Notes: generated from the letters alone by a model not told the origin. DNA of 64,000 bases from Alphaproteobacteria bacterium (GCA_965200495.1 CBDAUG010000001.1:2324885-2388884), one strand, 5' to 3'; counted from the stretch's first letter, positions 44,455 through 62,750 are shown. Translations and numbers: made by a program.

Positions 44455-44459
44455 CGCCC

Positions 44460-45688: not shown

Positions 45689-45790
45689 GCCTCGATCCCC
45701 CCTGTTGGGCCACAATGTAGCCTGTTCGGATCGGCGGTGTCCATGCCGCCAGCGGCAGCAGGCCCCGGCCCTGCTTCGCAGCGACCGCGA

Positions 45791-46576: not shown

Positions 46577-46639
46577 CTTTACGCTTGATCAGCGCTGAAA
46601 CTTCGGCTAGCCGCCTTTTCTCATCGTTCCGCCAGAAGG

Positions 46640-48262
46640 CGGGTTAAGGGGCTGCATGGTGCGCCCTGGGCGGCGTCATGGCCGTGTGAGCCTGCCGCAT
46701 GGAGGCCCGGAGGCACGGAGTGACGTGTGACCGGGGTGTGCGGGGACCGGCAGAGGTCCTCTGACGGCGTCGGTGGCGTGTTCCAGGCAAGCGCATCCAC
46801 ACTCCTGGTTTCCGGGAGCATGAGGCAGAAAGACGCGTGGCGGGAAGGAAGATCAGCCCGGCGCCAGCATCTTCCATGCGGCGGCAAAGGCGGCCTTGTC
46901 GGGACAGGCGTTGGACATGGCGATGTGGATGCGGCGTGCGGAGACCCGCACTCACAGCACCGATCCGGATGAGTTTCCAAGGTGAGCGTGGCAGGGCTGG
47001 CACGACCGAGCGGGGTCCTTTGCGAGGCTGCGCCGCAGGCGGTTGGAGAGACCATGGGCGAAGGCCGACAAGACAGAGCCGGACGACGTTGGCATCAAGG
47101 AGGTTCGATGACGAGCGTGCGGCGAAGAGATCGCAACCGACCTCTTTGACACGATTGTCCGCATCGCCCCTGGCGCAGGAGAAGTCCTCGTAGAGGGCCT
47201 GGCCGGGGCGGTCGAGCGAGGTGACGATGGTACGGCTGTTCTCCTTGCAGGGCTGGCCGTCGCCCTGCCCGGCAAGCGCCTCGGCCTTGGCAATCACCCG
47301 ACGCTCGGCGGACCAGGACTCCTGCGTCCTATAGCGGAAGGTGCAGAACCGGCGGCATGCCCGGCCGGTCTCCAGGGTCTCGGCCATGGCCTCCTCCATA
47401 GCCTGTGCACGCAGCGTCGCCAGCCTGGCGTTGCGGGCCAGACCCAGCACATCGTCGACGTTCTCCTCATGCTCGATGACCGTCATGATGGCGTCGCGGC
47501 AGAAACCCGAGTCGGTGCGCACGATGATGCGCGTCGTCGGCCACCTGACGCGGATCCACAGCGATCACGCCCTCAAGTTCCTCCCTGATCCCGAAAGCCG
47601 CATCCTTCGCCGCGGTGCGCAAGCGCACCAGAACCGGGTGCCGGTCGACGCACATCAGCACCGGCAGGTAACAGGACCGCGGTAGTCACCATGGTCGAAG
47701 CGCTGCTCCTGGGTGCCGTGCAGTGCAAAGTCCGTGGCGTCGATGTCGAGGACGATCTCGAAAGGGCTCTTCCTCGTCCTCTTCATGAAGCAGCTCCACC
47801 AGAAGGTCGTCCATCTTCTCGAAGTCGGCGACGATCTTCGAGGGCCTTCGTGCCATCCATGCCCACAGGCCGCCAGTTCCAGGCGGTTCAGCGTGCTCTT
47901 GCCCGCCAGGGGTTCGCAGTCCTCGCGTCTGCTCTCCAGGCACCCCAGCACCGCTCCGGCCACAGGATCCTTGGCCGAACTCGTCTGTGGTCGTTGAGAT
48001 CGTCAAGACCGGTCAGGAGACCCAGGATGCGCTGGCCCACCAGGGTGCGCACCTCGTGGACGACCAGCGCGCGATTGCGCGCATCGTCGAAGCACGCGGC
48101 CACGCGCGCGAAGAGATCGAGCGATCTCTCGGCAAGGCCGACGAGCAGGAGCCCGCCATGGGAGGTGATGGTACCGCCCGAGACGTCGGCTTCGATGCGC
48201 CCTGGCCTGGCGCCGTGCGGGGTTGGACAGGAGAACTTGGCCGGGATACACTGTGTTGTCAT
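46640..48262 (-). mobile_element. IS1380-family insertion sequence, near full length, with its transposase split over at least 4 frames
   Basis: Minus-strand ORFs 47888-48262 (MTTQCIPAKFSC...GGTITSHGGLLL...LDDLNDH), 47655-47963 (AGKSTLNRLEL...FEIVLDIDATDFALHG), 47467-47661 and 46644-47522 (FRYRTQESWSAERRVIAKAE...YEDFSCARGDADNRVKEVGCDLFAARSSSNLLDANVVRLCL). Confidence 0.8.
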
Positions 48263-48263
48263 G

Positions 48264-48323
48264 AGGAACGCCTCTGTCTCTTGTGTTGTTGGTCTTATAA
48301 CAACAGATTACAGAGATTTCCTC
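48264..48323. repeat. 60-nt imperfect palindrome between the IS1380 start and the symporter gene stop
   Basis: gaggaacgcctctgtctcttgtgttgttgg tcttataacaacagattacagagatttcctc. The arms are gaggaa/ttcctc, ctctgt/acagag and ttgtt/aacaa. Confidence 0.55.
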
Positions 48324-48356
48324 ATGGCGCCAACAAGTTAGTATGCACAATCCGGG

Positions 48357-50228
48357 CTAGCGTTCCCGGAGCCGCGAGAGACTTGAAGCGATCCAGCCAG
48401 GAGTGCGTTCGCCCGGAAGTGATGGTTCGTCTTCGCTGCGGGCGAGTGTTCTCAGACCGTCTTCGGTGGTTGATCCCAGCCGGGTGGGGTAGGCGAGCCA
48501 CCACACCAGGGGTACGCCGATCATCCAGAAGAAGATCTGCCACACCCAGAGGGAAGAAAGGCCGAGTGCAGCCGCCTCGTCCACGAAGATCGGCTCGATG
48601 AAGAATGTATTGCCCAGAATGGCGCCTGGACCCAGCGCGAAGAACGCCCAGATCAGCACCAGGGACCATGTCGCGGTTCTCGAAGCCGGTCTGCCGAATG
48701 GCACGCGCCACGATGCCCGGAACTCGCCGTGCAGGCGATCGCGAACGTCACGTCCGGCACTGCGTCCGGTGAAGATGGAGACGAGAAGGACGGCAACGAC
48801 GTTGCACATCAGCCCCCAGGCAGCCGAATGGACTGTCAGGGGCCAGCGACCCCAGGGCAGGTCGACGAACAGCCCCTCGAAGAACACGAGTCCGGGAGGT
48901 TCGGTGAAGACGACAACAAGTCCGCCCAGTATGACGCCGGTCAGCACGGCACCGCGGCTGATCCATGGTATGAAGGCGAAGCCCAGAAGGGCAGGGGCCA
49001 GCTGCACCGACAGGGGCAACACCGCGCTGGCGAGGATTGCCGAAGTGAGCGGCAAGAATGCCGCCAGGATCGCCACTGGAATGAAGGCACCGGCCAGGGC
49101 AATGCGTGTTGCCAACCGCTGCTCTTGAGGGGTGAGCCCCGGAAGGACATCGTGAAACAGCAGGTCCCGCGCGAGCTGCAGGGTTCCCCCGGTGACGAAG
49201 AAGGCGACCGTCAGCTGGGCGGCGACGACAAGGCCGAGAATTGCGACCGCTCCGGAAAGCACATCCACCCCGGCCAGCACTGCGACAAGGGTGGCCACGT
49301 CGCCGTCCATGCGTGCAGCAAGGAAAGGGATGGCAAGCACCAGAACGGCCCCGACAAGTCCCGCCATGAGCCATACGTGCGTCACCGCGAAGGCACGTCC
49401 CGATCCGGTGGTCATGGCGAGATGGAGAAACGTCGGCGACAGCACAATGCCGACCATGATGAGGGCTGCTGACATGATGCCGACAGTGGTGAAGATACCG
49501 CCAGCCGGCATCTCCTTGCCCGCACCTGCAGCATACTGCACGACACCTGGAATGCGGTCGGCGAGAATGCCGTCGGCCACCGGGATCGACGTTGTCAGGA
49601 ACCCCGGGTCCGCAAGCATGCCTTCGCCGAAGAAGAGTGCGGTCACGATGGCGACGACGACAATGGCGGATTGCATTGCGGCGACCAGGACGACGGCGCG
49701 CCACCCGCCGATGACAGCGGGCACGAAGAGCGTGAAGGCAAGTGTCCAGATGGCGCCCTGGCGCGGTATGGCGCCATCCGTCGCCGTATCGATGATGGTG
49801 CCTGCCTCGGCCAGCACATGGGCCGCGAAGGGAAGGGTGAAGAGCGCTGTCAGTGCGACTGCGAAGAGGCGCAAGGCGGTGCTTCGGTAGTACCAGCCGA
49901 TCATCAGCCCGGGACTGGCCAATCCGGTGATGCGTGCTCCCAGCCACAAGCGCTTGAGGACAAGAATGGCGGCCAGCGCTGCGATGATGATGCCGACGCC
50001 AACATGACTGGCCTGCAGTCCGTAGCGCTCGACGAGGGCGATATGGCTTGTCAGACCGAATCCGGCGAGCACCACGCCGGACGCCGTGAACGCGAAGGCC
50101 CAACCGGGAATGTCGTTGCCGCCGTCGAGAAATGTTTCGGGTGCGCGGCCAACGCGCGTGACCATGGCGGCAATGTACACACCATAGAGTGCCAGCACGG
50201 CAGCGGCTGTGGCGAATGCTGTCGTCAC
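48357..50228 (-). CDS. sodium:solute symporter (SSS) family transporter
   Basis: About 13 TM. GTG start at 50228 overlapping the stop of the upstream gene (GTGA). The first roughly 135 codons of ORF 48357-50633 are non-hydrophobic and were rejected. Confidence 0.7.
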   Translation of the reverse strand: MTTAFATAAAVLALYGVYIAAMVTRVGRAPETFLDGGNDIPGWAFAFTASGVVLAGFGLTSHIALVERYGLQASHVGVGIIIAALAAILVLKRLWLGARITGLASPGLMIGWYYRSTALRLFAVALTALFTLPFAAHVLAEAGTIIDTATDGAIPRQGAIWTLAFTLFVPAVIGGWRAVVLVAAMQSAIVVVAIVTALFFGEGMLADPGFLTTSIPVADGILADRIPGVVQYAAGAGKEMPAGGIFTTVGIMSAALIMVGIVLSPTFLHLAMTTGSGRAFAVTHVWLMAGLVGAVLVLAIPFLAARMDGDVATLVAVLAGVDVLSGAVAILGLVVAAQLTVAFFVTGGTLQLARDLLFHDVLPGLTPQEQRLATRIALAGAFIPVAILAAFLPLTSAILASAVLPLSVQLAPALLGFAFIPWISRGAVLTGVILGGLVVVFTEPPGLVFFEGLFVDLPWGRWPLTVHSAAWGLMCNVVAVLLVSIFTGRSAGRDVRDRLHGEFRASWRVPFGRPASRTATWSLVLIWAFFALGPGAILGNTFFIEPIFVDEAAALGLSSLWVWQIFFWMIGVPLVWWLAYPTRLGSTTEDGLRTLARSEDEPSLPGERTPGWIASSLSRLRER

Positions 50229-50686
50229 AAGTGTGAGCGATCTCGGCGCACCTCGGAAGATGGCCGCGGATTGTTGTCGCGGATGATGTCGAATTTTTCG
50301 AACGCAGCGCGTGCGCCATGGCGTGTCACCATGGTCAGGGCTGCGATCACGACGAGAGCCGTCATGCCCATTGCAATGGTGAGAAAGTGGGATTCGTAGA
50401 ACCCGTCTACCAGAACCATTGCGCCAGCAAAGGCATTCAGCGCTGCAAGAAACAGGACCATACCGACACCGGTCTCCCGCGCCGTGAATCCGGTTCCCAG
50501 AGCAGCGTTGACAATGATGTGACCGGCATATCCGGCGAGGATGATGAGAAACCCTCCGGCAACCCACCACGATCCGTCGGTGGCGAACCCGTGATGGAAC
50601 AAAACAGACGAGACGAGGCCGAGAGGCAGCCAAAGGGCCATGACCAGGGCATGACGGTCAAGCCGGGCCTGTTTTCCGGACACCAC
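50225..50686 (-). CDS. small 4-TM membrane protein, probable symporter-associated subunit
   Basis: 153 aa, hydrophobic, translationally coupled to the SSS gene. Confidence 0.6.
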   Translation of the reverse strand: MVSGKQARLDRHALVMALWLPLGLVSSVLFHHGFATDGSWWVAGGFLIILAGYAGHIIVNAALGTGFTARETGVGMVLFLAALNAFAGAMVLVDGFYESHFLTIAMGMTALVVIAALTMVTRHGARAAFEKFDIIRDNNPRPSSEVRRDRSHL

Positions 50687-50697
50687 TGCTCGCTACC

Positions 50698-52896
50698 TCA
50701 GGTATCGTCGCCGTGCGTATTCTTCGGCGCGCTCTCGGGAAAGTTGCGGAAAGACATGCCGCCGGCGGATCCCAGATTCTTGAGCGGCAACCCGATCTCC
50801 TCCATCAGTCCATCGACGAACGCCACCTGCGTGCGGTACTTCATGGCCGAGTTGACCACCCGGTCCGAAACATTGTCGGACCCGCTTCCTGCCAGCCCGC
50901 CTGCGCCCTCCGACGGACTGTTCAGCCCGGGCAGGCCGTCAACCTGGAGAATCTTGATGGATTCGATATTCTCCATCGGCCTCACCGATTCGCGGATCAC
51001 TTCTGGCAGCGTCCTGACGAGGTGCTCGTAGATGGCGCTGCGACGACTCTCGTCGGTGCGCATGTTCTCGGCCTCGTTGAGCTTCCTGTGGCCGTCGGCG
51101 TCAGTCTGGTAGCGCACCTCGGCAGCTTTCGATTCAGCAATCTCGGCTTCGGCTCTCCTTTCCATGGCGACCTTGTGGCCTTCGGCATTCCGCACGAGTC
51201 GCATGTACTCGCGCTCGACCTTGGCCTCGGCGTCAATGATCTCGATACGCTTGTTGCGTGCCGCGATCTCCTCGGCCCGGACCGAATCGATCCGGGCTTC
51301 CGTGGCGGCAAGGCTGCGCCGCGCCTCGGCTTCACTGGTGAGTGCGACGGCTTCCTCGATCTGCTTGTTGATCACGGCGATCAGGCGCTCCTTGTCAGCG
51401 ATCTCGATCTGCATGTCCTGTTCGATCTCGAAGCGGTCGATGAACTTGCGTGCCGCGATACGCATTTCCTCAAGCGCCCTGTTGGCAGAGATCGCTGCGT
51501 CCTCGGTGTTTCGGAAACTTCCGGTCTCGGCGAGCTTGATGGCCTGCTGCCTCGCGATGTCGCGTTCCGACACCTCCTGATCCGTCTGGAGGCGTGCCAT
51601 TTCTACGTCGAGGCGCTTGGAGATTGCTGCGCGCTCTTGTTCGCCCGCCGCCTGCTCTGATGAGACCCGGACCTCCTTCTCGGCCTCGACTCCGAGGAGT
51701 TCGATTTGCCTCTCCTTGGAGATCCGTTCCGCTTCGACTTCCCGTTCCCTATCAAGGCGGGCCTTCTCAACCTCGGAGTGGGATTGCGAATCGAAGACTT
51801 CGATTTCCATCTGAGACCTGATGGATGCTTCACGGATCTGGCGTTCACGCTCGATCCGCTCTGCCTCGATCTGCTGGCGGCTGTGGATGCGTTCTGTTTC
51901 GAGCGTCGAATGGGTTTCGATGTCGACCAGTTCCGTCTCGCGCTGCTTCTCGATCTCCTGGGTGCGGATATGGTTCTGTGAGCGGATGCGTTCGAGTTCG
52001 ATGGCCTGTTCCTTGGTGATGCGCAGGAGCTCGCTTTCCTTGTCCGCCTTGAGTTTGGCCTCGACCACGGCGATCTCTGAACTGGAGCGCTCCGCTGCGA
52101 CCTCGGCGAGTTGCATGGCCTTGCGGTTTTCGATGTCCCGGACCTGATTGATCCGTGCGATTTCCAGGTCGCGGTCGATCTCGAGTGCTCGCTGTTCCGC
52201 CTCGAAATCCCTCATCTTGATATCGATACGGGCCTCGTTTTCGATCTTGTTGCGCAGTTTGCGGCGATCCTCGACCTGCTCGGTCAACTGTGTGAGACCT
52301 TCGGCGTCAAAGGCGTTGGAAGGGTTGAAGACCCCGATGTCTGACTGGTTGAGAGATGTCAGCGATGCGTTCTCAAGTTCGAGTCCGTTGCTCTCGAGAG
52401 TGCCAGCAGCCAGTTCTGCGGCCTGGCGGATGTATCCGCCGCGATCCTGGTGGATTTCCTCCATGGTCATGCGGGCGGCGACAGCTGCCATGGCATCGAC
52501 AAAGCGGCCGTGAATGACTTCCTTGACAGCCAGCGCGTTCTGGGTTTGGGCGCCAAGCGTGCGCGCGGCGGTGGAAACCCCGTCGCGTGTCGCGATGACG
52601 CGGACAAAGTACTCTGCGACCAGATCGATCCGCATCTTGTTCTTCGTGATCAGCGATTGTTCGCCAGTGCGCCGGACCTCGATCGGGATGGCGTTCATGT
52701 TGACGACAGTGATGTCGTGGATGATCGGGATGACGAGAGCGCCGCCCCCCATCACGACTTTCTCGCCGCCAGCGCCCGTGCGCACAAAACTCTGATCCTT
52801 CGATGAATGACGATAAAGCCAGTGCAGCAGATAAACCCCGACAGCGATCAGGATCGTCAACAGAATGATGATTGCGATAGCGTCAGCACCGGTCAT
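50698..52896 (-). CDS. flotillin-family (SPFH/band 7, YqiK-like) protein with long coiled-coil
   Basis: N-terminal TM followed by an SPFH domain. There is an extended E/R/K-rich coiled-coil region. 732 aa. Confidence 0.82.
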   Translation of the reverse strand: MTGADAIAIIILLTILIAVGVYLLHWLYRHSSKDQSFVRTGAGGEKVVMGGGALVIPIIHDITVVNMNAIPIEVRRTGEQSLITKNKMRIDLVAEYFVRVIATRDGVSTAARTLGAQTQNALAVKEVIHGRFVDAMAAVAARMTMEEIHQDRGGYIRQAAELAAGTLESNGLELENASLTSLNQSDIGVFNPSNAFDAEGLTQLTEQVEDRRKLRNKIENEARIDIKMRDFEAEQRALEIDRDLEIARINQVRDIENRKAMQLAEVAAERSSSEIAVVEAKLKADKESELLRITKEQAIELERIRSQNHIRTQEIEKQRETELVDIETHSTLETERIHSRQQIEAERIERERQIREASIRSQMEIEVFDSQSHSEVEKARLDREREVEAERISKERQIELLGVEAEKEVRVSSEQAAGEQERAAISKRLDVEMARLQTDQEVSERDIARQQAIKLAETGSFRNTEDAAISANRALEEMRIAARKFIDRFEIEQDMQIEIADKERLIAVINKQIEEAVALTSEAEARRSLAATEARIDSVRAEEIAARNKRIEIIDAEAKVEREYMRLVRNAEGHKVAMERRAEAEIAESKAAEVRYQTDADGHRKLNEAENMRTDESRRSAIYEHLVRTLPEVIRESVRPMENIESIKILQVDGLPGLNSPSEGAGGLAGSGSDNVSDRVVNSAMKYRTQVAFVDGLMEEIGLPLKNLGSAGGMSFRNFPESAPKNTHGDDT

Positions 52897-52949
52897 TGTC
52901 AGGTCCTCGTCTTGAGACTCGCGCCTCGTGCGGTTGAATGGTGATCACG

Positions 52950-53639
52950 TCAGAACCGTTCCTGACCTGCGACAGCCAGGATGATGAGCGAGGGCACAAT
53001 CAGATTGATCAGGTCAAAGAGCGTGTAGAGTGCCACGATACTCGGTGACTGCCCTGTTGCGATCACCACATCGACGAAATGCAGGATGGGATAGATCGCC
53101 CAGCCGACGGTCATGATGAGGCGGATCCAGAAGTACCCCAGACGCACCGCGCGACTCTCCCGGCGCACGGTGTCGGCCAGGGGACCGAAGTAAAGTTCTC
53201 CCAGGATATAGAGCCAAAAGCCGATTGAGAGCAGAACACCGAGAGTCGGATTGAAGAAGCCTGCATCGCCGAGATAGCGCGCGAACACCATGAGCAGCGC
53301 GGCAGCTGTCGTGCGCCAGAAGATGCCCACGGGCGGTTTCGCCAGGGCGCGCACAAAGAAGTACATGGCCGCGACCTGGAGTGGGTGCACTGTAAACCAT
53401 GCGGCAAAGCGGATGCCCCCGCTTGATCCTCCCCCGTGCAGCCAAAGGGATGCCGCGCCGGCATAGTGCAACGCCGATGCCAAGGTGGCGACGGCCACCA
53501 TTGAGACCGGAATCCGCCAGTTATCCGCAGACCAGCTCAGGCCAGCGAGACATAGGACTGCAGTGGAGAAGGTGGCCAGCGCGGCGATGACGAAGCTGCT
53601 GGCAACGACGTGCTGCGAGGTATAGAGAACTCCGAACAT
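52950..53639 (-). CDS. microbial-rhodopsin-like 7-TM protein lacking the Schiff-base lysine
   Basis: Seven hydrophobic helices. TM3 reads IRFAAWFTVHPLQV (cf. bacteriorhodopsin RYADWLFTTPLLL). TM6 reads VGWAIYPILHF (cf. LWSAYPVVWLIG). TM7 reads LFDLINLIVPSL with no Lys. The only Lys in the protein lies in a loop. Confidence 0.55.
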   Translation of the reverse strand: MFGVLYTSQHVVASSFVIAALATFSTAVLCLAGLSWSADNWRIPVSMVAVATLASALHYAGAASLWLHGGGSSGGIRFAAWFTVHPLQVAAMYFFVRALAKPPVGIFWRTTAAALLMVFARYLGDAGFFNPTLGVLLSIGFWLYILGELYFGPLADTVRRESRAVRLGYFWIRLIMTVGWAIYPILHFVDVVIATGQSPSIVALYTLFDLINLIVPSLIILAVAGQERF

Positions 53640-53649
53640 GTCCCCCTCC

Positions 53650-55068
53650 CTAGACTTGTGTCCTGATGTGCGCCAAACGTCCGTAGAGAGCAACCATCGG
53701 CAGGATCAGAAGGCCGAAAATGAACTGCTGCCATTCGTATGCAAGTCCAATGCCGATCAGAAACGAGCTCAGCACCTGAAGCACAAGGACACCGATGATC
53801 GTGAACCCGTAGCCGCCGTAGCCGCCAAGCAAGGACGTGCCGCCAATCACGACGGCTGCCAGGGTCGTAAACAGGTAAGGATCGCCGACTCCGATGAAAC
53901 CACCCCCCGACCAGCCGAGAAGCAGCGCCCCTGTCAGGGCGGCGAACACTCCGGACAGAACATAGGCGAGGGTCCAGTAGGTGAATTCCGAGACGCCGAG
54001 CAGCTTCGCTGACTGGCGGTTGCCGCCAAGGCCGTAGAGGTGGCGTCCCCATGCCGTATGGCGCAATCCGGTGATGACAACCGCGGCAATGGCCACCCAG
54101 ATCAGGATGGTGGGTGGAAAGGCCATGCCGAAGGTCTCGCCGTTCATCGCTGCCAGATTCTGAAGCCATGGGGGAACCGTGCCGAAGACGTTACCACTGA
54201 ACGCCGTGCCGATTGATGTCAGGATCTGCACAAGACCGGCGATGCCGAAGCCGATACCCAGCGACACGATCAGCGCCTGGCCCTGTAGTTTGAAGCTCAG
54301 GACCCCGTTCAGCAGACCAATGAGACCACCGACAAGAAGAACGAACCCGAAGGCCACGTAGGAAGGAACACCGAGGCTGATCAGAAACAGCAACCCGATG
54401 TTTGCGGCACCGATCACGAAGGGGATCGAAAGGTCAAGTCCGCCCATGAGGGCCACCAGTGTCTGGCCGACGCAGGCGATGCCGAGGAAGGAGGCGAACA
54501 GCAGAATCGCCTTCACGTTGGTACCGGAGAGAAACCCGTCGATGGTGAACGAGGAGATGACGATCAGGGCCGCAAGCACGATCAGCCCGATAAAGGCGCT
54601 TCGTCCGTGGGCGAAGCGCCCTGATACCTTGAAGGCGAACAAAAGGATCGCCTCCAGAACCAGGAAGGCGACGAGATTGGTCACAGTCCGGAAGGACTCG
54701 ACCGAAGCGGTGACAAGGAGGTAGGCGACAAGCAGCAGGCCCATGGCGATGATCATCACGCGGTTCGACTGCCACACGCCCCTTGCCCCGCTGGCAGGTG
54801 CCCTGCTGGCAGGTGCCCCGATGCCAGTCCTGCGAGACTCGAAGATCACCACGATGTAGTTGAGGAGCCATAACAGCACGGCCACCGACACGACAGTGGA
54901 GACGATGACGTCCTGGGCCGCCAGCCCCTGAGCGAATCCGACGCCGAAGCCGATGGCGGCCACGATCAGTGCCGCAGCCAGGTTGATCCAGATCATGAAC
55001 GTCGAACGCGGGATGGGTATCAGCTGTGTCCTTGAACCGCGTTCGGCGAAAGGCTGTTCTTCAGTCAT
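53650..55068 (-). CDS. sugar ABC transporter permease (RbsC/AraH-like core with N-terminal extension)
   Basis: 472 aa with about 10 TM. The C-terminus reads ...GGTSLLGGYGGYGFTIIGVLVLQVLSSFLIGIGL, as in monosaccharide ABC permeases. Confidence 0.78.
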   Translation of the reverse strand: MTEEQPFAERGSRTQLIPIPRSTFMIWINLAAALIVAAIGFGVGFAQGLAAQDVIVSTVVSVAVLLWLLNYIVVIFESRRTGIGAPASRAPASGARGVWQSNRVMIIAMGLLLVAYLLVTASVESFRTVTNLVAFLVLEAILLFAFKVSGRFAHGRSAFIGLIVLAALIVISSFTIDGFLSGTNVKAILLFASFLGIACVGQTLVALMGGLDLSIPFVIGAANIGLLFLISLGVPSYVAFGFVLLVGGLIGLLNGVLSFKLQGQALIVSLGIGFGIAGLVQILTSIGTAFSGNVFGTVPPWLQNLAAMNGETFGMAFPPTILIWVAIAAVVITGLRHTAWGRHLYGLGGNRQSAKLLGVSEFTYWTLAYVLSGVFAALTGALLLGWSGGGFIGVGDPYLFTTLAAVVIGGTSLLGGYGGYGFTIIGVLVLQVLSSFLIGIGLAYEWQQFIFGLLILPMVALYGRLAHIRTQV

Positions 55069-56432
55069 GGTGCCATGCCTTCCAGCAGCGTCACGTCACC
55101 CTGGACCATCACCAGCGTGAACAGCGCGATTACAAGCGCCCCAAGCAGGACGTAGGCGAAGAGACCGAGTCTCTGCCGGCGCGCCTCGGCGCTCATCAGC
55201 CTTGCCGCCAGCGTCGCTGCGGCCGCGGCGATGACGACGGCAAAGACCATTCTCTGGAGAAGCGAGAACTGCGGAGCTGCCGCCTCGACTCCCGAGGGGA
55301 CGAACAGAAGATAACGTGTCGCAAGATCGGCGCCGTGCGCGACGACGAGACCTTCCGACGGAAGGGAGGTGCTGGAGGTTGCCACATGAAGCAGGATACC
55401 GCCAACGATGGTGCCGAGAACCAGAAACGCGCTCCACGGCGAAATGAACGCAATGTGCCGGGCAACGATCGGGACCAGAAGGGTCAGCAACAGGGACAGC
55501 ACCAGGATGATGCCGTAGCTCATCTGCGTGACGAATGCCTGTATTGCGCCAAAGTTGAGCGTGGCGAGGACGTAACCGATCAGGTAGAGGTTCAGTGCAC
55601 CGAGAAGGGCGCCGGTGACACCGCCCCGGCCGCCTGCCAGGCTCACACCGCCGAGTACAAGCGCGGTGACGGCCGTCAGGGTCATGGTCGTACCCTGGGT
55701 CGGGTCCCCTGAGGCAATCAGAGCAGTATAGCAAATTGCACCCAATCCGACGAACAGGCCGGCGATGACATGGGCGCCGATGCGCACGACATAGATGCGC
55801 ACTCCGCTCGTCCAGGCCGCACGCTCGTCGTATCCCATCATCCTCAAGTTGCTGTAGAACCGCGTCAGCGTGAACAAGAGCCAGCCGACGGTGGCGATCG
55901 CGACAATCAGAAGCACCGGCGAGAAGATCGTCGTGCCGCGGCCCCAGCTTGCCATCCACTCCGGCGCCAAACCACCCGGGCGTGGGAGGATGACGAGGTT
56001 GATACCCGACAGCGCCAGGAATCCGGAGAGGGCGACGATGATCGGCTGAACCCGGACCCAGATCACCACAATCGCGAAGAGCAGCTGATAGAGAACGCCC
56101 AATCCGAGCGCCACCAGGAAGACGCCGAACGGGCCGGTCACCAGATCCAGCATGTTCAGCTTGACGATCGTGACGTTGATGAAGGCAAGTAGTGGGCCGA
56201 CGGCAAGATCGATGGTGCCGCGGCCCGCGATGGCAAGTGACATCAGCGCGTAGGTCGCAAGTGTAAGCGGAGCGGCAACGATGATGGCGCTGCCGAAACC
56301 CGACATTGAGACGAGATGCGGACCGCGGATGGCGGCTGCCGACAGCAGCACCATGATGAGCACGATCGGCACCAGGAGATAGGTGCTTGTCGTCGATGAC
56401 CGTTCCGACATCCCGTTCGGGCCCGCAGCCAT
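55065..56432 (-). CDS. sugar ABC transporter permease (second subunit, with C-terminal extension)
   Basis: 455 aa, highly hydrophobic. It overlaps the downstream permease by 4 nt. The start may be the internal Met at 56411. Confidence 0.72.
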   Translation of the reverse strand: MAAGPNGMSERSSTTSTYLLVPIVLIMVLLSAAAIRGPHLVSMSGFGSAIIVAAPLTLATYALMSLAIAGRGTIDLAVGPLLAFINVTIVKLNMLDLVTGPFGVFLVALGLGVLYQLLFAIVVIWVRVQPIIVALSGFLALSGINLVILPRPGGLAPEWMASWGRGTTIFSPVLLIVAIATVGWLLFTLTRFYSNLRMMGYDERAAWTSGVRIYVVRIGAHVIAGLFVGLGAICYTALIASGDPTQGTTMTLTAVTALVLGGVSLAGGRGGVTGALLGALNLYLIGYVLATLNFGAIQAFVTQMSYGIILVLSLLLTLLVPIVARHIAFISPWSAFLVLGTIVGGILLHVATSSTSLPSEGLVVAHGADLATRYLLFVPSGVEAAAPQFSLLQRMVFAVVIAAAAATLAARLMSAEARRQRLGLFAYVLLGALVIALFTLVMVQGDVTLLEGMAP

Positions 56433-56459
56433 GATTCAAGCGCCGGGCGGAGCCATTGC

Positions 56460-57398
56460 TCAAAGTTCAATCACGCGGCGCGGGTCCGCCTTCGAGGCTT
56501 GCTGTGGCCGGACGACAGGACCGGACAGCGAGCGACCTTCCCCGCGTCGCTGTGGATCATTCTGCAGAATCTTCTTGAGAACGGGCGCCACGACATTCTT
56601 GAACTTTTCCGGATCCTCTGAGGTCGGAAAGTGGCCACCGGAGAAGATGATGCACTCGCAGCCCTTGACCTTCTCCGCTGTGCGCTCTGTCATTTCTGGT
56701 GTACAGGCGAAGTCGTAGTCGCCGGTCATGAAGTAGATGGGCAGCCGCCCCGAAATCCTGTGCACCTTGTCACGGTAGTCGCTATCGACGGAATAGTAGT
56801 AGAGATCCCCCTTGAAGACGCCCGGTCCGCCCTGCGCATAGTACCACCACGTTTCCCAGCGATACTGGTCCGGACTCTCCGGCGACATCAGGCCGAACAC
56901 GGATGTCGCCACGGCCTCGCCTCCATGAACGTGCGGATGATGCAATGGATCGATCCACCACCCCGGTGAGTGGTCGCAGGCCTCCAGTGCAATCAGCGCC
57001 GAAAAATCGTTCTCGTGGTTGAGGGCGAGTTCAAGGCAGATGTTGCCGCCCATGGACTGGCCCATGATGACCGGCTTGTCGAGGTCGAGGGCCCGGCAGA
57101 AGGCGACAATGAACTCTGCGTAGAACCTCGACGTCAGCTTGTATTCATCCTCCATCAGGTAGAAGTCCTCGGGCGGGATCGATTTCCCGTGCCAGGGAAG
57201 ATCAAACGCAATCATGCGGAAATTCGATGAGAAGTCCGGTTCGCAAAGCTGATGGCGATACTGGCGACAGTCGGTGCCGGCGGTATGCAGGCAGACCATG
57301 GGAATACCTTCGCCAGTTTCCTCGTAATAGGTCCTGTAGGTCTTTCCTTCGCAGGTCACGTAAACGTAGCGTCCGATGATGGGATCATGCGGGTTCAT
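56460..57398 (-). CDS. alpha/beta-fold hydrolase
   Basis: GQSMGG nucleophile elbow. The product begins MNPHDPIIGRY. GC is lower (about 55%) than the surroundings. Confidence 0.75.
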   Translation of the reverse strand: MNPHDPIIGRYVYVTCEGKTYRTYYEETGEGIPMVCLHTAGTDCRQYRHQLCEPDFSSNFRMIAFDLPWHGKSIPPEDFYLMEDEYKLTSRFYAEFIVAFCRALDLDKPVIMGQSMGGNICLELALNHENDFSALIALEACDHSPGWWIDPLHHPHVHGGEAVATSVFGLMSPESPDQYRWETWWYYAQGGPGVFKGDLYYYSVDSDYRDKVHRISGRLPIYFMTGDYDFACTPEMTERTAEKVKGCECIIFSGGHFPTSEDPEKFKNVVAPVLKKILQNDPQRRGEGRSLSGPVVRPQQASKADPRRVIEL

Positions 57399-57412
57399 CG
57401 TTGTTCTCTCCG

Positions 57413-57817
57413 TCAGATTTCGCGCATGAGTGCAAGCATGCGGGTCAGTGCCCGCACGTTTTGCCAGAACGACAACTGATTGCCGTCGATAACCAGCTGC
57501 TTGTGCAGTGGATGCGCCATGGCCCAGATGTCGTTGAACATGGGCGGGGGCACAGGCTGGCTGAACTTCTCCCATGCGCTTGAGGGTGCACGCAGGGCAA
57601 ACTCGAAACCAAAGTCGTTCGGCGTCAAGCCCTCGGAGATGCGAACGATCTTGCCTTTCTGGACCTCGAACAGGAATTCGGTGTCGTCAAAGGCGATCAG
57701 GAACCGGAGATTGAAGAATCTGCCGATGGTCGGCAGGATCCGGTCTTCATTGACGCGACGCGCCCAGCGCTCGACCCATTCAATGTCGAAACTGGATCTG
57801 CGGCCATATCTGCTCAT
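57413..57817 (-). CDS. hypothetical protein (134 aa), within ABC operon
   Basis: Internal Met of ORF 57413-58309. The remainder of that ORF overlaps the PEBP-coding 3' part of the upstream gene and was rejected. Confidence 0.45.
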   Translation of the reverse strand: MSRYGRRSSFDIEWVERWARRVNEDRILPTIGRFFNLRFLIAFDDTEFLFEVQKGKIVRISEGLTPNDFGFEFALRAPSSAWEKFSQPVPPPMFNDIWAMAHPLHKQLVIDGNQLSFWQNVRALTRMLALMREI

Positions 57818-57854
57818 AAGGTCCTCCTGTCGGTTCAACAGCAACGTGCATGGC

Positions 57855-60056
57855 TCATGCAGCGGGTAACGGAGTGCGGGCGGGTCCGTAGACCGCGGTA
57901 AACGATGCCTGGTCGATTGCGACCGGGAGGACCGCTGCGCCGAAAGCGGCGAGGTCCGCGTCTGCTGCAATGTCAATTCCGGGCACCTTGAGTGCGTAAA
58001 GCGTGAAGACATAGCGATGCTGTTTGTCAGGAGGCCACGGACCGCCCCAGCCTCGGCCGAAGCCTGGAATGGCGAAGGCCACAAAGTCGCAGTTGAGTTC
58101 GATCGCGGCGCCCGGCAGCGCCTGGCCGCTGGCTCCTTCGGGCAGTTCGCGGATGTGATCGGGAATGTTGCAGACAAGCCAGTGAGCGAAACTTCGCGGG
58201 AAACTGAAGGCTTCAGGCACGTCCGGGTCGGTGACCGACAGGGCGAAACTTCGCGTGCCGAGCGGTACGCCAGACCAGCAGAGAGCGGGCGATGTGCTGC
58301 TCGATTCACAGAACCGGTCGGGTATCACCGAATCCTGGGGAATATCCGGCGCATGGAAGAGAAAGTCTGGCGGGCCCACCTGATCCTGCCAGTCGTTTGA
58401 GGACAACAGCGTCACCGGTCGGCCGTGTGGCCGTCCTTGCGCCACAAACGGCGTCGTCGTCGATGGTTGCCCTTGTCGGTCAGGATCATGACGTCGGTCA
58501 GGATCATGACGTCGGTTAGGATCATGACCGTCTGATGACGAGACCGTGCCGCCACGCCGGCCGAACATGGCATTGAGAATATCGTGACCGTTGAGCGGCG
58601 AGGAGAACTCTGCCGATATGGTGCCGTGACGGAACACATGCACCCGGTTACAGAGACCGAGAAATTCCTCGATTTCGGACGACAGGAACACCACGGCGTT
58701 GCCGCGCGCCACGAAGGCCCGGAGATTGAGATAGAGGTCACGTTTGGCACCGACGTCAATGCCGCGGGCAGGATCATTCAGTGCCAGGATCGAGGGTTTT
58801 TCTGCGAAGGCGCGCGCGATCAGGACCTTTTGCTGATTGCCGCCCGAGAGGGATGTGACAAGATCCTCGGATGATCCCATCCGCACATCAAGTCGCCCCG
58901 ATTCCCATTCGAAGACCGGGCGGAGTTTTGTGCGGTTGATCAGGTTGAGCCAGCCTCCGGCCCGGTACTCTCGGTAGACAGGCAGCAACAGGTTTTCGAA
59001 GATGTTGAGATTGCCGAAGATTCCTTCCTTCGCGCGGTCGCCGGAGACATAGGCAATGCCGCTCTCGCGAGCCGTCCGGAGATTGTCGATCGCGACTGCC
59101 GTGTTGTTTCGGACAATGGCGATGCGGCCCTCCGCCATCGTCTGTACCCCCGCAATGGCGCGGACAAAGTCGGCGTGTCCGTGCCCGTCGAGTCCTGTGA
59201 TTCCGACGATCTCGCCGGGATGGATTGTCAAGTCGAAAGAACTGGCGCCGGCCCAGACCCGTGCTTCGATAATGCGCAGAAGAGGGTGATCCGAAAGGCG
59301 GGAAACCGGGTCCTGCGATGGGCTCTGCCGGTGCTGCCCTTTCCCGGCGATCATGTCCACAATCCGCGCTTCGCTGATGTCCTGCCCGGCCAGGGTGCCG
59401 ATTGCGCTGCCGTCACGCAGCACGGTGGCGCTGTCGGCAATCCGCACCAGTTCGGCGATACGGTGGGTGACGATCATGATCGTGCAACCTCCGGCCTTCA
59501 TGCGGCGCATTTTGGTGAACAGCCGTTCCGTGGAGTCGAAGTCGAGTGCGGCCGAGGATTCGTCGAGGATCAGAACCTTGGGATCGGTCAGGATCGCCCG
59601 GGCGATGGTGACCCACTGTTTGATCGACAGGGGAAGTTCGCCAACGGCAACATCAAGGTCGAGTTCGAAACCCAGGAGTTCAATCATCAGTTCGCCCGCT
59701 GCGCGGTAGCGCTCCTCCCTTGCAACGGGAGTGCCAAGCAGGCTGTCTGCTCCGAGATACAGATTGTCGAGAACTGAGCACTCGTCGGCGACCAGAACTT
59801 CCTGGAAGACATTCGAAATGCCGAGTTCGCGGGCTTCATAGGGAGAGCTTGCGGATTTGCCGAGAATCGAGACGTGCCCACGATCCGGGATCAGCACCCC
59901 GGAGATCACCTTTGCGAGCGTGCTCTTGCCGGATCCGTTGCCGCCAATGATGGCATGAATCTCGCCTGCCGACGCGCGCAACGAGACACCGTCGAGGGCA
60001 ACGGTCGGGCCGAAGGCCTTGCTGACGTCGGAAATCTCGACGGTAGCTGCGACCAC
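57855..60056 (-). CDS. sugar ABC transporter ATP-binding protein (tandem NBDs) fused in frame, via a repeat linker, to a YbhB/YbcL (PEBP) family domain
   Basis: Two Walker A/LSGG-type NBDs (GGNGSGKST..., LSGGNQQK) cover about 495 aa. A (HDPxRR)x3 linker follows. The C-terminal 186 aa has the PEBP pattern DPDVPEA...HWLVCNIP...PPDKQHRYVFTLYAL. An alternative internal GTG start for the PEBP part lies at 58415. Confidence 0.75.
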   Translation of the reverse strand: MVAATVEISDVSKAFGPTVALDGVSLRASAGEIHAIIGGNGSGKSTLAKVISGVLIPDRGHVSILGKSASSPYEARELGISNVFQEVLVADECSVLDNLYLGADSLLGTPVAREERYRAAGELMIELLGFELDLDVAVGELPLSIKQWVTIARAILTDPKVLILDESSAALDFDSTERLFTKMRRMKAGGCTIMIVTHRIAELVRIADSATVLRDGSAIGTLAGQDISEARIVDMIAGKGQHRQSPSQDPVSRLSDHPLLRIIEARVWAGASSFDLTIHPGEIVGITGLDGHGHADFVRAIAGVQTMAEGRIAIVRNNTAVAIDNLRTARESGIAYVSGDRAKEGIFGNLNIFENLLLPVYREYRAGGWLNLINRTKLRPVFEWESGRLDVRMGSSEDLVTSLSGGNQQKVLIARAFAEKPSILALNDPARGIDVGAKRDLYLNLRAFVARGNAVVFLSSEIEEFLGLCNRVHVFRHGTISAEFSSPLNGHDILNAMFGRRGGTVSSSDGHDPNRRHDPDRRHDPDRQGQPSTTTPFVAQGRPHGRPVTLLSSNDWQDQVGPPDFLFHAPDIPQDSVIPDRFCESSSTSPALCWSGVPLGTRSFALSVTDPDVPEAFSFPRSFAHWLVCNIPDHIRELPEGASGQALPGAAIELNCDFVAFAIPGFGRGWGGPWPPDKQHRYVFTLYALKVPGIDIAADADLAAFGAAVLPVAIDQASFTAVYGPARTPLPAA
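58476..58529. repeat. 3 x 18-bp perfect/near-perfect tandem repeat in the ATPase-PEBP linker (encodes HDPDRR units)
   Basis: tcggtcaggatcatgacg tcggtcaggatcatgacg tcggttaggatcatgacc. Confidence 0.85.
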
Positions 60057-60159
60057 GTCAGATGTTCCGGCAGACCCGCAAGGCTGGACTCGCCACTGCC
60101 CGGCTTTCAGGGCAGTGGCGAGTCATGATCCGCTTCTTTGGGATAAACTGAGCCAACCT

Positions 60160-61356
60160 TTACTGTGCGGCCGGATGCGATGCCGGATCGTACATCTCCG
60201 GATCTGCCGGGCGCAGGAAGAAGTTGTCCAGATATTCCTTGCCCGCCCAGGCTTCGACGCCGACATGGTACCAGTCTGCCGAGTTCTCGTCGCAGTCTTC
60301 AGGAATAGCCGCGAGCATCTGGTCCCTGTTCATCGATATGGGCTTGGCAAGGATCGACTGAACCTTGGGGCCCTGCCCCTGAAGTGTGCGCATCATGATG
60401 TTCCAGGACATCTCGAAATCGTCACCGGGAGGCCACGCATGGATCGCGCCCGAGACGTAGTCCGGATGGTTGCGCCAGTAGCAAAGGGCGCCGAGTTCGC
60501 TGCCGATGGTCACCGGCACCATGTCGCGACCCGACTGCTTCAGGGCACGCAACGCGCCAAGTTCGGAGGCGGACTGAATAATGATGCCATCGAGTTGGCC
60601 GGGGTTGGTCGCCATCCATTTCTGGATTTCGGCCTGGGCCACCTGGTCTGTCCACATTCCGGCGATCTGGCCGACAGTCTCGATATCCGGGTAGTCGGCG
60701 AGTGCTGCCTCAATGCCAACGTTCTGACTGTCAGAGGCCGATGTACCCGGGATTCCCTCGACATTGAGAATGTTGCCGACGCCGCCGATTTCGCTGGCCA
60801 TCCACTCGCCCATCATGCGCCCACCGACGACGAAGTTGGCCGACGAGTTCACCGAGTAGGGACTGGTCAGGTAACCGACCGCTGAAAACGTGGGGACACC
60901 GCGTTCGTAGGCATAGGCGACGGTCTGGTTGAGTGCCGTGGGATTCGAGCAGCAGACGATCAGTGCATCGACACCCTGGTCGACGAGCTGGCGCATTTGC
61001 TGGATCTGAACCGAATCGTTGAGGTTCGACTGCGTGATGACGACCTCTGAGACAAGACCGAGCGCGGTCCATTTTGGAATGATCTCGTTCTGCAGCCGGT
61101 TCATGACGGCGGCGCGCCAGGTGTTGCCGGCATAACTTGAGGCATAACCGATCTTCCATGGTGGCGGGTTCGGGGCGATGAAATCGCGATAGGGGCTTTT
61201 GCCCACAGGCTGGACCGGATCCATGAATGCCGGGTCGTAGAGTTCGTCGCGGATGTCTTCAGGCAGTTCTTCGACTCCGGCCGACACCGGTGCTGCGATC
61301 ATGGCCGATACGCAAACAGCAAGTGCCGGCAAGAATGCGGTCGTGCAGCGTTTCAT
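60160..61356 (-). CDS. sugar ABC transporter periplasmic substrate-binding protein
   Basis: Signal peptide MKRCTTAFLPALAVCVSAMIAAPVSAG. It has a periplasmic binding protein type I-like body. It is the first gene of the minus-strand cluster. Confidence 0.8.
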   Translation of the reverse strand: MKRCTTAFLPALAVCVSAMIAAPVSAGVEELPEDIRDELYDPAFMDPVQPVGKSPYRDFIAPNPPPWKIGYASSYAGNTWRAAVMNRLQNEIIPKWTALGLVSEVVITQSNLNDSVQIQQMRQLVDQGVDALIVCCSNPTALNQTVAYAYERGVPTFSAVGYLTSPYSVNSSANFVVGGRMMGEWMASEIGGVGNILNVEGIPGTSASDSQNVGIEAALADYPDIETVGQIAGMWTDQVAQAEIQKWMATNPGQLDGIIIQSASELGALRALKQSGRDMVPVTIGSELGALCYWRNHPDYVSGAIHAWPPGDDFEMSWNIMMRTLQGQGPKVQSILAKPISMNRDQMLAAIPEDCDENSADWYHVGVEAWAGKEYLDNFFLRPADPEMYDPASHPAAQ

Positions 61357-61556
61357 GGGTCCTCCCTTCAAGGTTCTGTTTCAACGGACCGACATGACTG
61401 CTGACGCTTCAGCGCGATGTCACTGCCGGCCCGCCCGGGAAATCTACACCACATCTGCAACAACGGAATAGTCCGGAGTAGGACGATCCCACGCTCAATT
61501 CGGGGACTGTTGTTGATACCACCTGTTGTTGCGTTGCATGCGCGCGGGCGCGGGAT

Positions 61557-62750
61557 TTGAGGGGCCTTGCGGCAGAGGTCGCGGCGGGCGTCACCGCGGA
61601 CATCGAGCGCCTGATCGACGGTCCGGCTGATGGCCTGGACTTCGAGGTTGTTGAACGTGTGGTCCGGGAGACGGCGCTTGGCACGGCGGCCTCGCTTCTG
61701 GCGGCTCGGCTGAACGCGACCTTATCGGACGGCGAGGCGGCTGCACTGCCCTGTGACTGTGGCGGCATCGGTCGTCGCCGGGGGCGTCGTTCCAGGGTCC
61801 TTGTCACGGCTCCTGGGCCTGTGACCCTGGAGCGGGCGTGGTCTCACTGCGAGGTGTGCGGCCGCGGCTTCAGCCCGCTAGACCGGGCCCTTGGTCTGGA
61901 GGGGCATGGTCTCTCGCCCGCGGTTTGAGCGCATGGTTGCGATCACGACAGCGGAACCCGGCTTCGCCGGAAGCAGCACACTGTTGCGCGAACTGGCCAG
62001 CCTTGAGGTCGAAGCCAGACAGGTGGAACGCCAGGCTGAAGCCCTGGGTGGCGAGATCGCTCAGATGAGAGAAACGTCATCGAGGTGGAGCCGCCGACTG
62101 CGGTGACGCTCTGTCCCGGCCTTGTGCACCGGGATCCCGGTGCACAAGGAGGAAAGGGAGGGCCGTCACGGCAAGCAGGCGGGCGGCACGGCGCGGTCAA
62201 GCTTGCTATCATCTGGTCAGCCGACAGCCGCCCCAGGGAAGGCAAACCGGTCCGCGCTTGGCGGGTCTGTCACCTGCAACGCGCCATTGAATCCATCGCC
62301 ACCCGTGATACCGACAAGGAGCTTGCGGTCTTTGCCCGGCGGATCCTCACGCGAGAGGGAGCGCCGCGACTTCTTCGGCGTCGAACGCGGGTTGTCCTCG
62401 GTGATGGCGCTGCCTGGATATGAAACGTCGCCGCCAAGCATGTGCAAAGACGCCATCCAGATCGTCGCTCTCTTCCATGCCAGGGCACTCTGCGGATAAG
62501 GACAGCGATCTCGCCTGCCAGTGGGGCAAGCAGCGGCGCGCCGCACTCGACCAGGGGTGCTTCGACCTTGTCATCGCCGCGCTGGAGAAACACGCAGACC
62601 GCGGCGAGGAAGCAGCGCGCAACGTCACCTGCCTTAACAGAACAATCGCGCACACGTATGGACGACCCCCGGTTCCGTGCCCGGGGCCTGTGCGTCTCCA
62701 CCGGCGTGGTCCGAGGGAGCATGCGCGCCAGTCATCGCCGACCGTCTGAA
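61557..62750 (+). mobile_element. fragmented transposase pseudogene (ISKra4/ISAzo13-like, family tentative)
   Basis: Consecutive ORFs in three frames: 61557-61928 (...CDCGGIGRRRGRRSRVLVTAPGPVTLERAWSHCEVCGRGFSPLDRALGL), 62085-62423 (...VVLGDGAAWI), 62420-62749. Confidence 0.5.

Follow-up and report, generated by a model that had tools for sequence, protein, structure and literature searches.

We describe ten genes on the minus strand of a 64,000-nt stretch of DNA from Alphaproteobacteria bacterium (GCA_965200495.1, CBDAUG010000001.1:2324885-2388884; this whole stretch is hereafter called the window) and conclude that they almost certainly constitute the flotillin-associated rhodopsin (FAR) gene cluster in a compact, alphaproteobacterial version. 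FArhodopsins and their gene cluster were named for Pelagibacterales, HIMB59 and Pseudothioglobus (Haro-Moreno et al. 2023, mSystems, PMC10308929). In the published cluster, the rhodopsin gene always adjoins a flotillin gene on the same strand, and genes for an SCP2-like protein, alpha/beta hydrolases, a sodium/solute symporter and an ABC transporter are also present (PMC10308929). Table S2 of the same paper gives the SAR11 sequences of the rhodopsin, the flotillin, the SCP2-like protein, the hydrolase, the SSS symporter, two permeases, the ATPase and the substrate-binding protein (SBP). We compared the window proteins with these SAR11 proteins by blastp, taking the first 400 of the 581 residues of the SAR11 ATPase. 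Clear homologues in the SAR11 FAR cluster emerged for nine of these ten proteins, at 28-54% identity (Table 1); the 153-aa protein and the PEBP domain of the ATPase found no counterpart among the SAR11 sequences compared. An earlier note on this DNA had regarded the gene combination as not being a described system, and this has to be withdrawn, since a cluster with the same parts was published in 2023 (PMC10308929). What is new here is the compact ten-gene form, with its PEBP fusion and a subunit with four transmembrane (TM) segments, of a known, functionally unsolved cluster. Beyond the FAR papers, we found no literature on this cluster in Mesorhizobium or other Alphaproteobacteria. Taken as a whole, the data are best explained by a FAR cluster arranged as a single operon that would form a transport and processing platform, and we consider this overall explanation likely.

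Both in the marine FAR cluster and in the window, the rhodopsin gene lies directly upstream of a same-strand flotillin gene and is accompanied by a homologous transporter/SCP2/hydrolase set. However, the marine cluster spans ~26 kb, uses both strands and comprises additional genes (DMFase-like, carboxylases, PxpA, Fe-ADH, lactonase, aldolase), whereas the window has ten genes in what appears to be one compact operon. Marine FARs keep the Lys and the DTT/DTL/DNI motif, in contrast to Leu and A/V/A in the window rhodopsin, and their hosts are streamlined, whereas the host here has a high-GC genome bearing insertion sequences (IS).

Table 1. Coordinates of the cluster genes and of adjacent features in the window, with the evidence for each and the identity to the SAR11 FAR-cluster protein.
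Feature	Position	Strand	Evidence or remark	Identity to SAR11 protein
Conserved 5′ leader/promoter region upstream of the SBP gene	61357..61451	−	blastn match to nearest relative ends at 61451	
CUT2-type periplasmic SBP, 398 aa	60160..61356	−	Pfam Peripla_BP_4, 1e-34	51%
Tandem ABC ATPase-PEBP fusion, 733 aa	57855..60056	−	Pfam: two ABC_tran and PF01161 (2.8e-31)	49% (ATPase part)
SCP2-like (sterol-carrier-fold) protein, 134 aa	57413..57817	−	SAR11 homologue and predicted fold	30% (E 2e-24)
Alpha/beta hydrolase, 312 aa, GQSMGG nucleophile elbow	56460..57398	−	Pfam Abhydrolase_1, Abhydrolase_6	44%
ABC permease A, 455 aa	55065..56432	−	BPD_transp_2 core, residues 60-312; C-terminal hydrophobic extension of ~140 aa	54%
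ABC permease B, 472 aa	53650..55068	−	BPD_transp_2 core, residues 186-456; N-terminal hydrophobic extension of ~160-185 aa	53% (to the 14-TM permease)
FArhodopsin, 229 aa, Lys-less (L213)	52950..53639	−	Pfam Bac_rhodopsin; best PDB match 9r21	30% (to SAR11 FAR)
Flotillin, 732 aa	50698..52896	−	Pfam Band_7 and Flot; N-terminal TM segment, SPFH domain, long coiled coil, C-terminal Flot domain	41%
153-aa protein, four hydrophobic segments	50225..50686	−	Candidate small subunit of the transporter encoded next to it, downstream	
Divergent SSS (SLC5)-fold secondary transporter, 623 aa	48357..50228	−	SAR11 homologue and predicted fold	28% (E 4e-27, to the Na+/solute symporter)
ISKra4-family transposase fragment	61557..61925	+	NCBIfam NF033572, 1.5e-7, profile positions 7-116 of 422	
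IS1380-family fragments	46644-47522 and 47888-48262		Transposase fragments within the debris mosaic	
Mobile-element debris mosaic, 6.1 kb, outside the system	42202..48356		In the spacer that separates Aminotran_5 from the SSS-like gene	

Organisation and conservation of the cluster

The content, order and strand of the ten co-directional genes, as first listed in the earlier note, were borne out by the open reading frames (ORFs), and for seven of the genes also by Pfam. The SBP gene starts with an ATG and has a GGGAGG ribosome-binding site. The two permease genes are joined by an ATGA overlap. As noticed earlier, the stop and start codons of the last two genes do overlap by the 4 nt GTGA, and this overlap is kept in other genera. 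The flotillin gene follows the rhodopsin gene at a distance of 53 nt on the same strand. The neighbouring genes are separated by 10-53 nt or overlap, so the previously described gaps of 10-60 nt hold, the overlaps apart, for all junctions except that between the SBP and ATPase genes, which measures 103 nt. From the spacing and synteny, we infer that the ten genes form a single operon read as one transcript. A scan of the region upstream of the SBP gene found no sigma-70-like promoter consensus above chance, promoter and terminator scans of the cluster stayed at the chance level, and an Rfam scan of the window gave no match.

In the ATPase fusion, the ABC part occupies residues 1 to ~500 and the PEBP domain residues 578-723 (nt 57888-58325). 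The linker between them includes an in-frame, perfect 18-nt tandem repeat in three copies (58475-58528), which codes for HDPDRR three times, and the fusion is 733 aa long in the window vs. 721 aa in the nearest relative.

More than 400 relatives of the window rhodopsin are found in the protein database; the top 120 are all of ~229 aa, and many come from cultured Alphaproteobacteria. We then took one genome per GTDB species and found that 152 species encode a rhodopsin relative, most of them named as non-streamlined Alphaproteobacteria; the best 80 were used for the analysis of the loci. These 80 include Roseovarius, Ruegeria sediminis, Paracoccus haematequi, Cypionkella, Gemmobacter, at least 12 Mesorhizobium species, Microbaculum marinum, Pseudoxanthobacter, Pseudohoeflea, Taklimakanibacter, and SAR116 and Rhodospirillales metagenome-assembled genomes (MAGs). 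Shinella is also among the cluster hosts. In a tblastn search with the window proteins, 60 loci were long enough to be judged; 59 of them clearly had the ten genes in colinear order on a single strand, and 56 of the 60 had the PEBP fusion. The flotillin gene comes directly after the rhodopsin gene in 79 of the 80 loci, the exception being an 872-bp contig, and the 153-aa protein was found in 75 loci. The median identity is highest for the hydrolase (77%), followed by the SBP (75%), the SCP2-like protein (73%), the permeases (72% and 69%), the ATPase (68%), the flotillin (63%), the rhodopsin (60%), the SSS-like carrier (47%) and the 153-aa, 4-TM protein (41%). Gene calls and Pfam searches on two loci agree with the tblastn picture.

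The colinearity of the loci indicates that we are dealing with one conserved module. The idea that the ten genes are one linked system had been put forward before, and the relatives did not refute it: the linkage of flotillin, rhodopsin and transporter genes is retained there. The opposite view, that independent units (an ABC operon for sugars, a flotillin gene and a gene of the SSS type) have come to lie side by side by chance, might appeal to the fact that every component type occurs alone in many genomes and that the scans revealed no shared promoter or terminator. It has practically no chance of being correct, as it is refuted by synteny: order, strand and overlaps are identical in all but one of the 60 loci over several alphaproteobacterial orders, and linkage of these gene families recurs in SAR11, HIMB59 and Pseudothioglobus.

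Several clusters very near the alphaproteobacterial ones bear other taxonomic labels, namely those of Paenibacillus sp. SY21-1 (L033, an 872-bp contig), of two MAG contigs labelled Gammaproteobacteria (L037 and L049) and of a "Deltaproteobacteria bacterium" (P0241); L037 parallels the SAR116 locus L060 gene by gene. These non-alphaproteobacterial attributions likely reflect contamination or mis-binning and not true hosts. Public databases carry homologues of the clade under the names "bacteriorhodopsin", "sensory rhodopsin" or "Blue-light absorbing proteorhodopsin precursor". In RefSeq, an ion-transport GO term is attached as well. Since the protein has no retinal lysine, such labels are misleading and likely wrong.

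The rhodopsin-fold protein

In the Pfam search, the window rhodopsin scored 31.7 bits with Bac_rhodopsin (gathering score, 24.6). Its only Lys, K101, is in a loop, and helix G reads FDLINLIVP. When the protein was compared with PDB sequences by phmmer, the best matches were the PsFAR entries 9r21 (111 bits, E 7e-31) and 9r23 (104 bits), while proteorhodopsins reached 68 bits at most; the identity to PsFAR is ~30%. According to cryo-EM and spectroscopy, PsFAR binds no retinal, its pocket being occupied by H84 and E120 (Kovalev et al. 2025, bioRxiv 10.1101/2025.04.29.651185, later Structure; PDB 9R21/9R23). In our alignment, the window protein has H85 in the place of H84 and keeps S54 and D209 of PsFAR, whereas E120 is exchanged for R121, the Schiff-base K213 for L213 and the counter-ion D79 for A80. 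Among the 80 species, Leu occupies position 213 with a single exception (Val). R121 and D209 do not vary, Asp never appears at position 80, and position 85 is mostly His or Gln. The DTT/DTL/DNI motif of marine FARs is replaced by A80/V84/A91. As judged from the alignment, pocket-blocking residues (H85 at the H84 site and the bulky R121 at the E120 site) appear to be present in the window rhodopsin, and together with the absent Lys they suggest that the protein is retinal-free.

With PsFAR as the best PDB match and with Leu among the Lys replacements reported for freshwater FARs, we assign the window protein to the Lys-less FARs; this placement was made by pairwise scores and alignment. The absence of the marine signature excludes the marine subgroup but not the FAR family, since most freshwater FARs have no Lys and carry Q, T, L or R instead (PMC10308929). 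The freshwater Lys-less FArhodopsins (PMC10308929, Fig. 3, Table S4) resemble the window protein in lacking the helix-G Lys; they lie beside flotillin whenever the contig is long enough and retain some of the FAR-cluster genes. However, they are known from short metagenomic contigs of unclear taxonomy, whereas the window clade offers the full operon and hosts that include isolates.

The protein had previously been called Rh-noK-like. This is correct insofar as the helix-G Lys is absent (L213), a feature common to the window protein and Rh-noK of marine betaproteobacteria, which likewise has a rhodopsin fold without the retinal-binding Lys. Rh-noK proper, however, is related to xanthorhodopsin, and its gene lies beside a proteorhodopsin gene. 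The nearest relatives of the window protein are FARs and proteorhodopsins, and its gene has permease and flotillin genes as neighbours; membership in Rh-noK was therefore rejected. Moreover, the blocked pocket and the lost counter-ion argue against a simple restoration in the window protein.

For marine FARs, which in single-cell genomes always occur together with a proteorhodopsin paralogue, the authors proposed a role as a proteorhodopsin helper (PMC10308929). In such a scheme, FAR would join the proton-pumping proteorhodopsin in flotillin rafts, thereby tuning dim-light harvesting, and the transporters would be raft-enriched bystanders. The similar pentamers formed by PsFAR and PsPR (Kovalev et al. 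2025) agree with this. For the clade studied here, we consider the scheme quite improbable. The Lys, the counter-ion Asp and the donor residue are lost in all 80 species, and the hosts include soil and rhizosphere bacteria such as Mesorhizobium and Shinella, as well as Paracoccus haematequi. No second rhodopsin was found in the 64-kb window or in any 20-kb locus examined, and the 4.6-Mb replicon of Shinella sp. PSBB067, which bears the full cluster, yielded no other rhodopsin-like locus in a search sensitive to 24% identity. Besides, the ABC and hydrolase genes are better conserved than the rhodopsin gene, which fits poorly with a bystander role.

Transporters and accessory proteins

The cluster encodes all parts of a CUT2 importer: an SBP of the Peripla_BP_4 type, whose nearest PDB relatives are CUT2 sugar/polyol-binding proteins, a pair of BPD_transp_2 permeases, and an ATPase that unites both ABC domains in a single chain. 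The same plan is found in RbsABC, YtfQRT-YjfF, AlsABC and Lsr. In contrast to these importers, the window permeases have ~140-185 extra hydrophobic residues, recalling the 14- and 20-TM SAR11 homologues, the ATPase carries a PEBP domain, and the scores are far below those of the equivalogs. The ATPase resembles YtfR/AlsA/XylG, below the NCBIfam cutoffs (329 vs. 850 for YtfR), and none of the substrate-defined CUT2 equivalogs in NCBIfam (ribose, xylose, allose, galactofuranose, AI-2 and others) was reached (44 vs. 337 for RbsB).

The 134-aa, 153-aa and 623-aa proteins had no Pfam or NCBIfam match even at E<10, and profiles of the SSS-like protein (17 homologues) and the SCP2-like protein detected nothing among PDB sequences. 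The folds of these two proteins were predicted by AlphaFold2 (AF2) models and Foldseek searches against PDB. The model of the 623-aa protein had a pLDDT of 80.5 and a pTM of 0.87, and its top 33 PDB matches were all SLC5/SSS proteins (TM-score up to 0.72, E down to 4e-11), including CHT1, DUR3, SGLT1/2, SiaT, NIS and vSGLT; the SAR11 homologue belongs to InterPro IPR001734. The modelled structure thus identifies the 623-aa protein as a predicted LeuT-type SSS fold outside the sequence models of the family. In other words, the earlier designation "SSS symporter" is upheld at the level of the fold, while the family profiles remain silent. For the 134-aa protein, the AF2 model had a low pLDDT of 64; its top 22 Foldseek PDB matches were all SCP2 proteins (TM-score 0.35-0.63, E down to 2e-4), no PDB sequence match was obtained, and the SAR11 homologue is placed in the SCP2 superfamily (InterPro IPR036527).

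SSS transporters with small accessory subunits are known, such as SGLT2-MAP17 and ActP-YjcH. The conserved 4-nt overlap with the SSS-like gene suggests that the 153-aa protein is likewise a small subunit of the carrier. As in these two pairs, the window combines an SLC5/LeuT-type fold with a small membrane protein, here translationally coupled and encoded immediately upstream; in contrast to them, the carrier is unmatched by Pfam SSF, and the small protein has four TM segments and belongs to no known family. The flotillin shares the SPFH and Flot domains and the coiled coil with FloT/FloA of Bacillus subtilis, which are proposed scaffolds concentrating transporters and signalling proteins. However, it scores 47 bits against the FloT model (cutoff 700), and it is encoded inside a transporter operon. 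A Pfam scan of the ten cluster proteins found no NfeD-family (PF01957) protein as a flotillin partner. The hydrolase is weakly similar to 3-oxoadipate enol-lactonase, esterases and meta-cleavage-product hydrolases.

With a putative SCP2 fold, a PEBP domain and a flotillin in one operon, the cluster might be taken for a lipid-handling machine, in which these proteins and a rhodopsin-fold scramblase or lipid hub would remodel membrane lipids while the ABC transporter moves a head-group or precursor. Light-independent scramblase activity has reportedly been observed for a proteorhodopsin (PMC10730872), and the 2023 paper tied the cluster to membrane structure (PMC10308929). We nevertheless find this alternative unlikely, although somewhat less so than the proteorhodopsin helper. 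The SBP, permeases and ATPase are those of a typical CUT2 sugar/polyol importer, the additional SSS-fold carrier argues for solute uptake, and the recurrent neighbours of the cluster are enzymes of soluble organic-acid/CoA catabolism and lactonases, not of lipid synthesis.

Neighbouring genes and the possible substrate

ORF clustering of the flanks in 79 loci revealed recurrent families: MmgE/PrpD (45), LysR (44), family III CoA-transferase (31), acyl-CoA dehydrogenase (22), hot-dog hydratase (13), aldehyde dehydrogenase (10) and HpcH/CitE-type lyase (9). Taken together, these genes resemble an operon-linked pathway of dicarboxylate-CoA catabolism. Examples of such flanks are L053:11764-13098, L045:17386-18585 and L072:18137-19303. 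The Shinella sp. PSBB067 replicon has the MmgE/PrpD, LysR and CoA-transferase genes in addition to the full operon.

A variant of the cluster resides on plasmids, as in Pararhizobium gei (plasmid p2; L085, 3830-18000) and Hoeflea sp. IMCC20628 (L086). Its genes encode, in this order, an IclR regulator, the SCP2-like protein, the hydrolase and an AttM lactonase (the gene is named attM by RefSeq), then the SBP, an ATPase without a PEBP match and the two permeases, and finally the rhodopsin, a shorter flotillin, a small protein, the SSS-like carrier and an Fe-alcohol dehydrogenase (Fe-ADH). The rhodopsin of this variant has Arg at the Lys site, and its hydrolase and SCP2-like protein are 79% and 64% identical to those of SAR11, i.e., far closer than the window versions. 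AttM homologues also flank three chromosomal loci. Two loci (L064 and L081, at ~18.1-20.7 kb) have no PEBP fusion and carry a second, SAR11-like SCP2 and hydrolase pair together with an AttM homologue downstream of the operon.

The att/blc operon of Agrobacterium, with its IclR-type repressor, AttM/BlcC lactonase, Fe-ADH and succinic semialdehyde dehydrogenase, serves the catabolism of gamma-butyrolactone and N-acyl homoserine lactones. The plasmid FAR variants have the IclR regulator, attM and Fe-ADH in common with it; these genes are not in the window, and the link to a substrate is by association. No homologues of AttM, Fe-ADH, IclR, MmgE/PrpD, CoA-transferase or LysR were detected in this window. 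The CUT2 importer, the SSS-fold carrier, the always-paired SCP2-like protein and hydrolase, and the neighbours suggested to us the uptake and first hydrolysis of a small ester or lactone, but this substrate class is at best a doubtful guess.

Composition, mobile elements and the chromosomal context

The GC content of the whole cluster is 60.9% vs. 64.2% in the rest of the window, and the cluster is the lowest-GC 13-kb stretch when compared with those sampled before it (minimum, 63.0%). The earlier note was thus right that the GC content drops here, but its value of 52-58% for 56.4-60.0 kb does not hold: this region has 60.0% GC, with 500-nt windows of 55-63%. The compositional deviation it predicted is present and modest, the tetranucleotide correlation with the background being 0.64 for the cluster and 0.82 +/- 0.03 for control segments. 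The flanking IS remnants were also confirmed: IS1380 fragments downstream, and an ISKra4 fragment just upstream, where synteny with the relatives stops (the blastn match is lost past 61451).

These features had been interpreted as signs of a recent horizontal acquisition marked by the flanking IS. A recently acquired island would be in line with the fragments on either side and the deviating composition, as well as with flanks that vary by genus, a plasmid-borne variant and the presence/absence polymorphism in Pseudothioglobus. However, comparison with the nearest relatives makes it very improbable. In the MAGs OZ242305.1 and OZ243917.1, which show 83-88% nucleotide identity over the cluster and the Aminotran_5/PALP/MgtE flank, the cluster occupies the same chromosomal site minus the 6.1-kb debris, and the identity inside the cluster (88%) equals that in the conserved flank (87%). 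Since relatives free of the debris hold the cluster at the same site, the downstream IS debris represents a later, separate insertion and not an island boundary. We found no direct or inverted repeats bounding the cluster. Across genomes, the GC content of the cluster tracks that of the host, from 52% (SAR116) to 68%, regressing toward ~60% in both directions, and the content of membrane and coiled-coil proteins can partly explain the composition bias. An IS-bounded genomic island was therefore rejected, and recent acquisition finds little support. The operon belongs to the core chromosome, ~25-35 kb from rpoBC, fusA, tuf and pccAB.

Over longer evolutionary times, the module is mobile. Its flanks differ between genera, the plasmid-borne variant (one of the plasmids is conjugative) is found in Pararhizobium gei, Hoeflea and Martelella, and the FAR cluster has been described as a presence/absence structural variant in Pseudothioglobus populations.

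The 6.1-kb debris is a mosaic comprising a DDE_Tnp_1_4 fragment (42452-42913), an HTH_37 ORF (43906-44451), a reverse transcriptase (RT) fragment (44562-45413), AbiEii (45794-46576) and the IS1380 fragments (46644-48262), and its tetranucleotide correlation with the background is 0.48. IS1380/DDE_Tnp_1_4 transposase fragments lie at both ends in opposite orientations, and in NCBIfam the RT fragment weakly matched the model of the group II intron RT/maturase as well as two models of antiviral RTs, Drt4 and Drt3a. The debris may be the remnant of a composite transposon with a defence or toxin-antitoxin cassette.

Farther away, the window holds rpoB, rpoC, fusA and tuf (30-13343) and the propionyl-CoA carboxylase genes pccB and pccA (30909-34448). 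The EF-Tu gene explains a local GC dip and a GC-skew spike at 12-13 kb. A tRNA-Leu(GAG) gene (38383-38469) lies just before the MgtE gene (38501-39873). The latter matched the protein of the relative in two tblastn pieces with 84% and 92% identity, and its longest ORF is 325 aa vs. 457 aa in the relative; it may be disrupted or have a different start.

Discussion

The operon raises the question of what a rhodopsin fold without its chromophore may do beside a flotillin. Lacking the Schiff-base Lys (L213) and the counter-ion (A80), and with its pocket filled by H85 and R121, the rhodopsin-fold protein would bind no retinal, and we therefore read it as a light-independent structural membrane subunit, probably pentameric like PsFAR. 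The flotillin, co-translated with it, would scaffold a membrane microdomain, and two transporters would be made in fixed stoichiometry with this platform. One of them would be the CUT2-type, SBP-dependent ABC importer with extra-TM permeases and a PEBP-bearing ATPase, and the other the divergent SSS-fold carrier with its translationally coupled 4-TM subunit. In the cytoplasm, the SCP2-like carrier and the esterase/lactonase-like hydrolase would process the imported compound, probably a small ester or lactone of polar or amphipathic character, and hand the product to catabolic genes that the host has placed beside the operon. In other hosts, these would be MmgE/PrpD, family III CoA-transferase, acyl-CoA dehydrogenase, hydratase and lyase genes, or else those of AttM lactonase and Fe-ADH. 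That the system works as a transport and processing platform independent of light and proteorhodopsin appears to us an evenly balanced proposition. The more specific idea, that evolution has co-opted the rhodopsin fold for a structural role in a light-independent, flotillin-organised transporter/hydrolase metabolon and that it is not a proteorhodopsin accessory, is put forward tentatively, as its chances fall slightly short of even.

A number of points weigh against this model. No function has been established for any FAR in the literature, and the PsFAR structure presents no obvious flotillin-binding surface (Kovalev et al. 2025). The window clade is a divergent branch without the marine motif or the helix-G Lys, its rhodopsin being 30% identical to SAR11 FAR. 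For this host, co-occurrence with proteorhodopsin was checked within the 64-kb window. As the promoter and terminator scans were uninformative, the single transcript rests on spacing and synteny. The hints to the substrate come from neighbours that are absent here, where the genes downstream are Aminotran_5 and PALP; the similarities of the hydrolase are weak and confined mostly to its N-terminal half, and confidence in the SCP2-like model is low.

FArhodopsins are abundant, recently recognised "blind" rhodopsins that have so far been studied in uncultured streamlined plankton and by heterologous expression. Here, we find the FAR module in an ordinary alphaproteobacterium of high GC content, reduced to an operon of ten genes that is strictly conserved, and the clade challenges the idea that FARs serve light harvesting. 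Should the light-independent platform prove true, it would overturn the dim-light hypothesis for at least this branch. The clade occurs in many cultured, tractable bacteria, so the role of a retinal-free rhodopsin and its flotillin becomes directly testable. Some of the cultured hosts appear to have no other rhodopsin, and, if the model is correct, those from soil, rhizosphere and marine habitats (Mesorhizobium, Shinella, Roseovarius, Ruegeria, Paracoccus) would be genetically tractable models for the FAR family.

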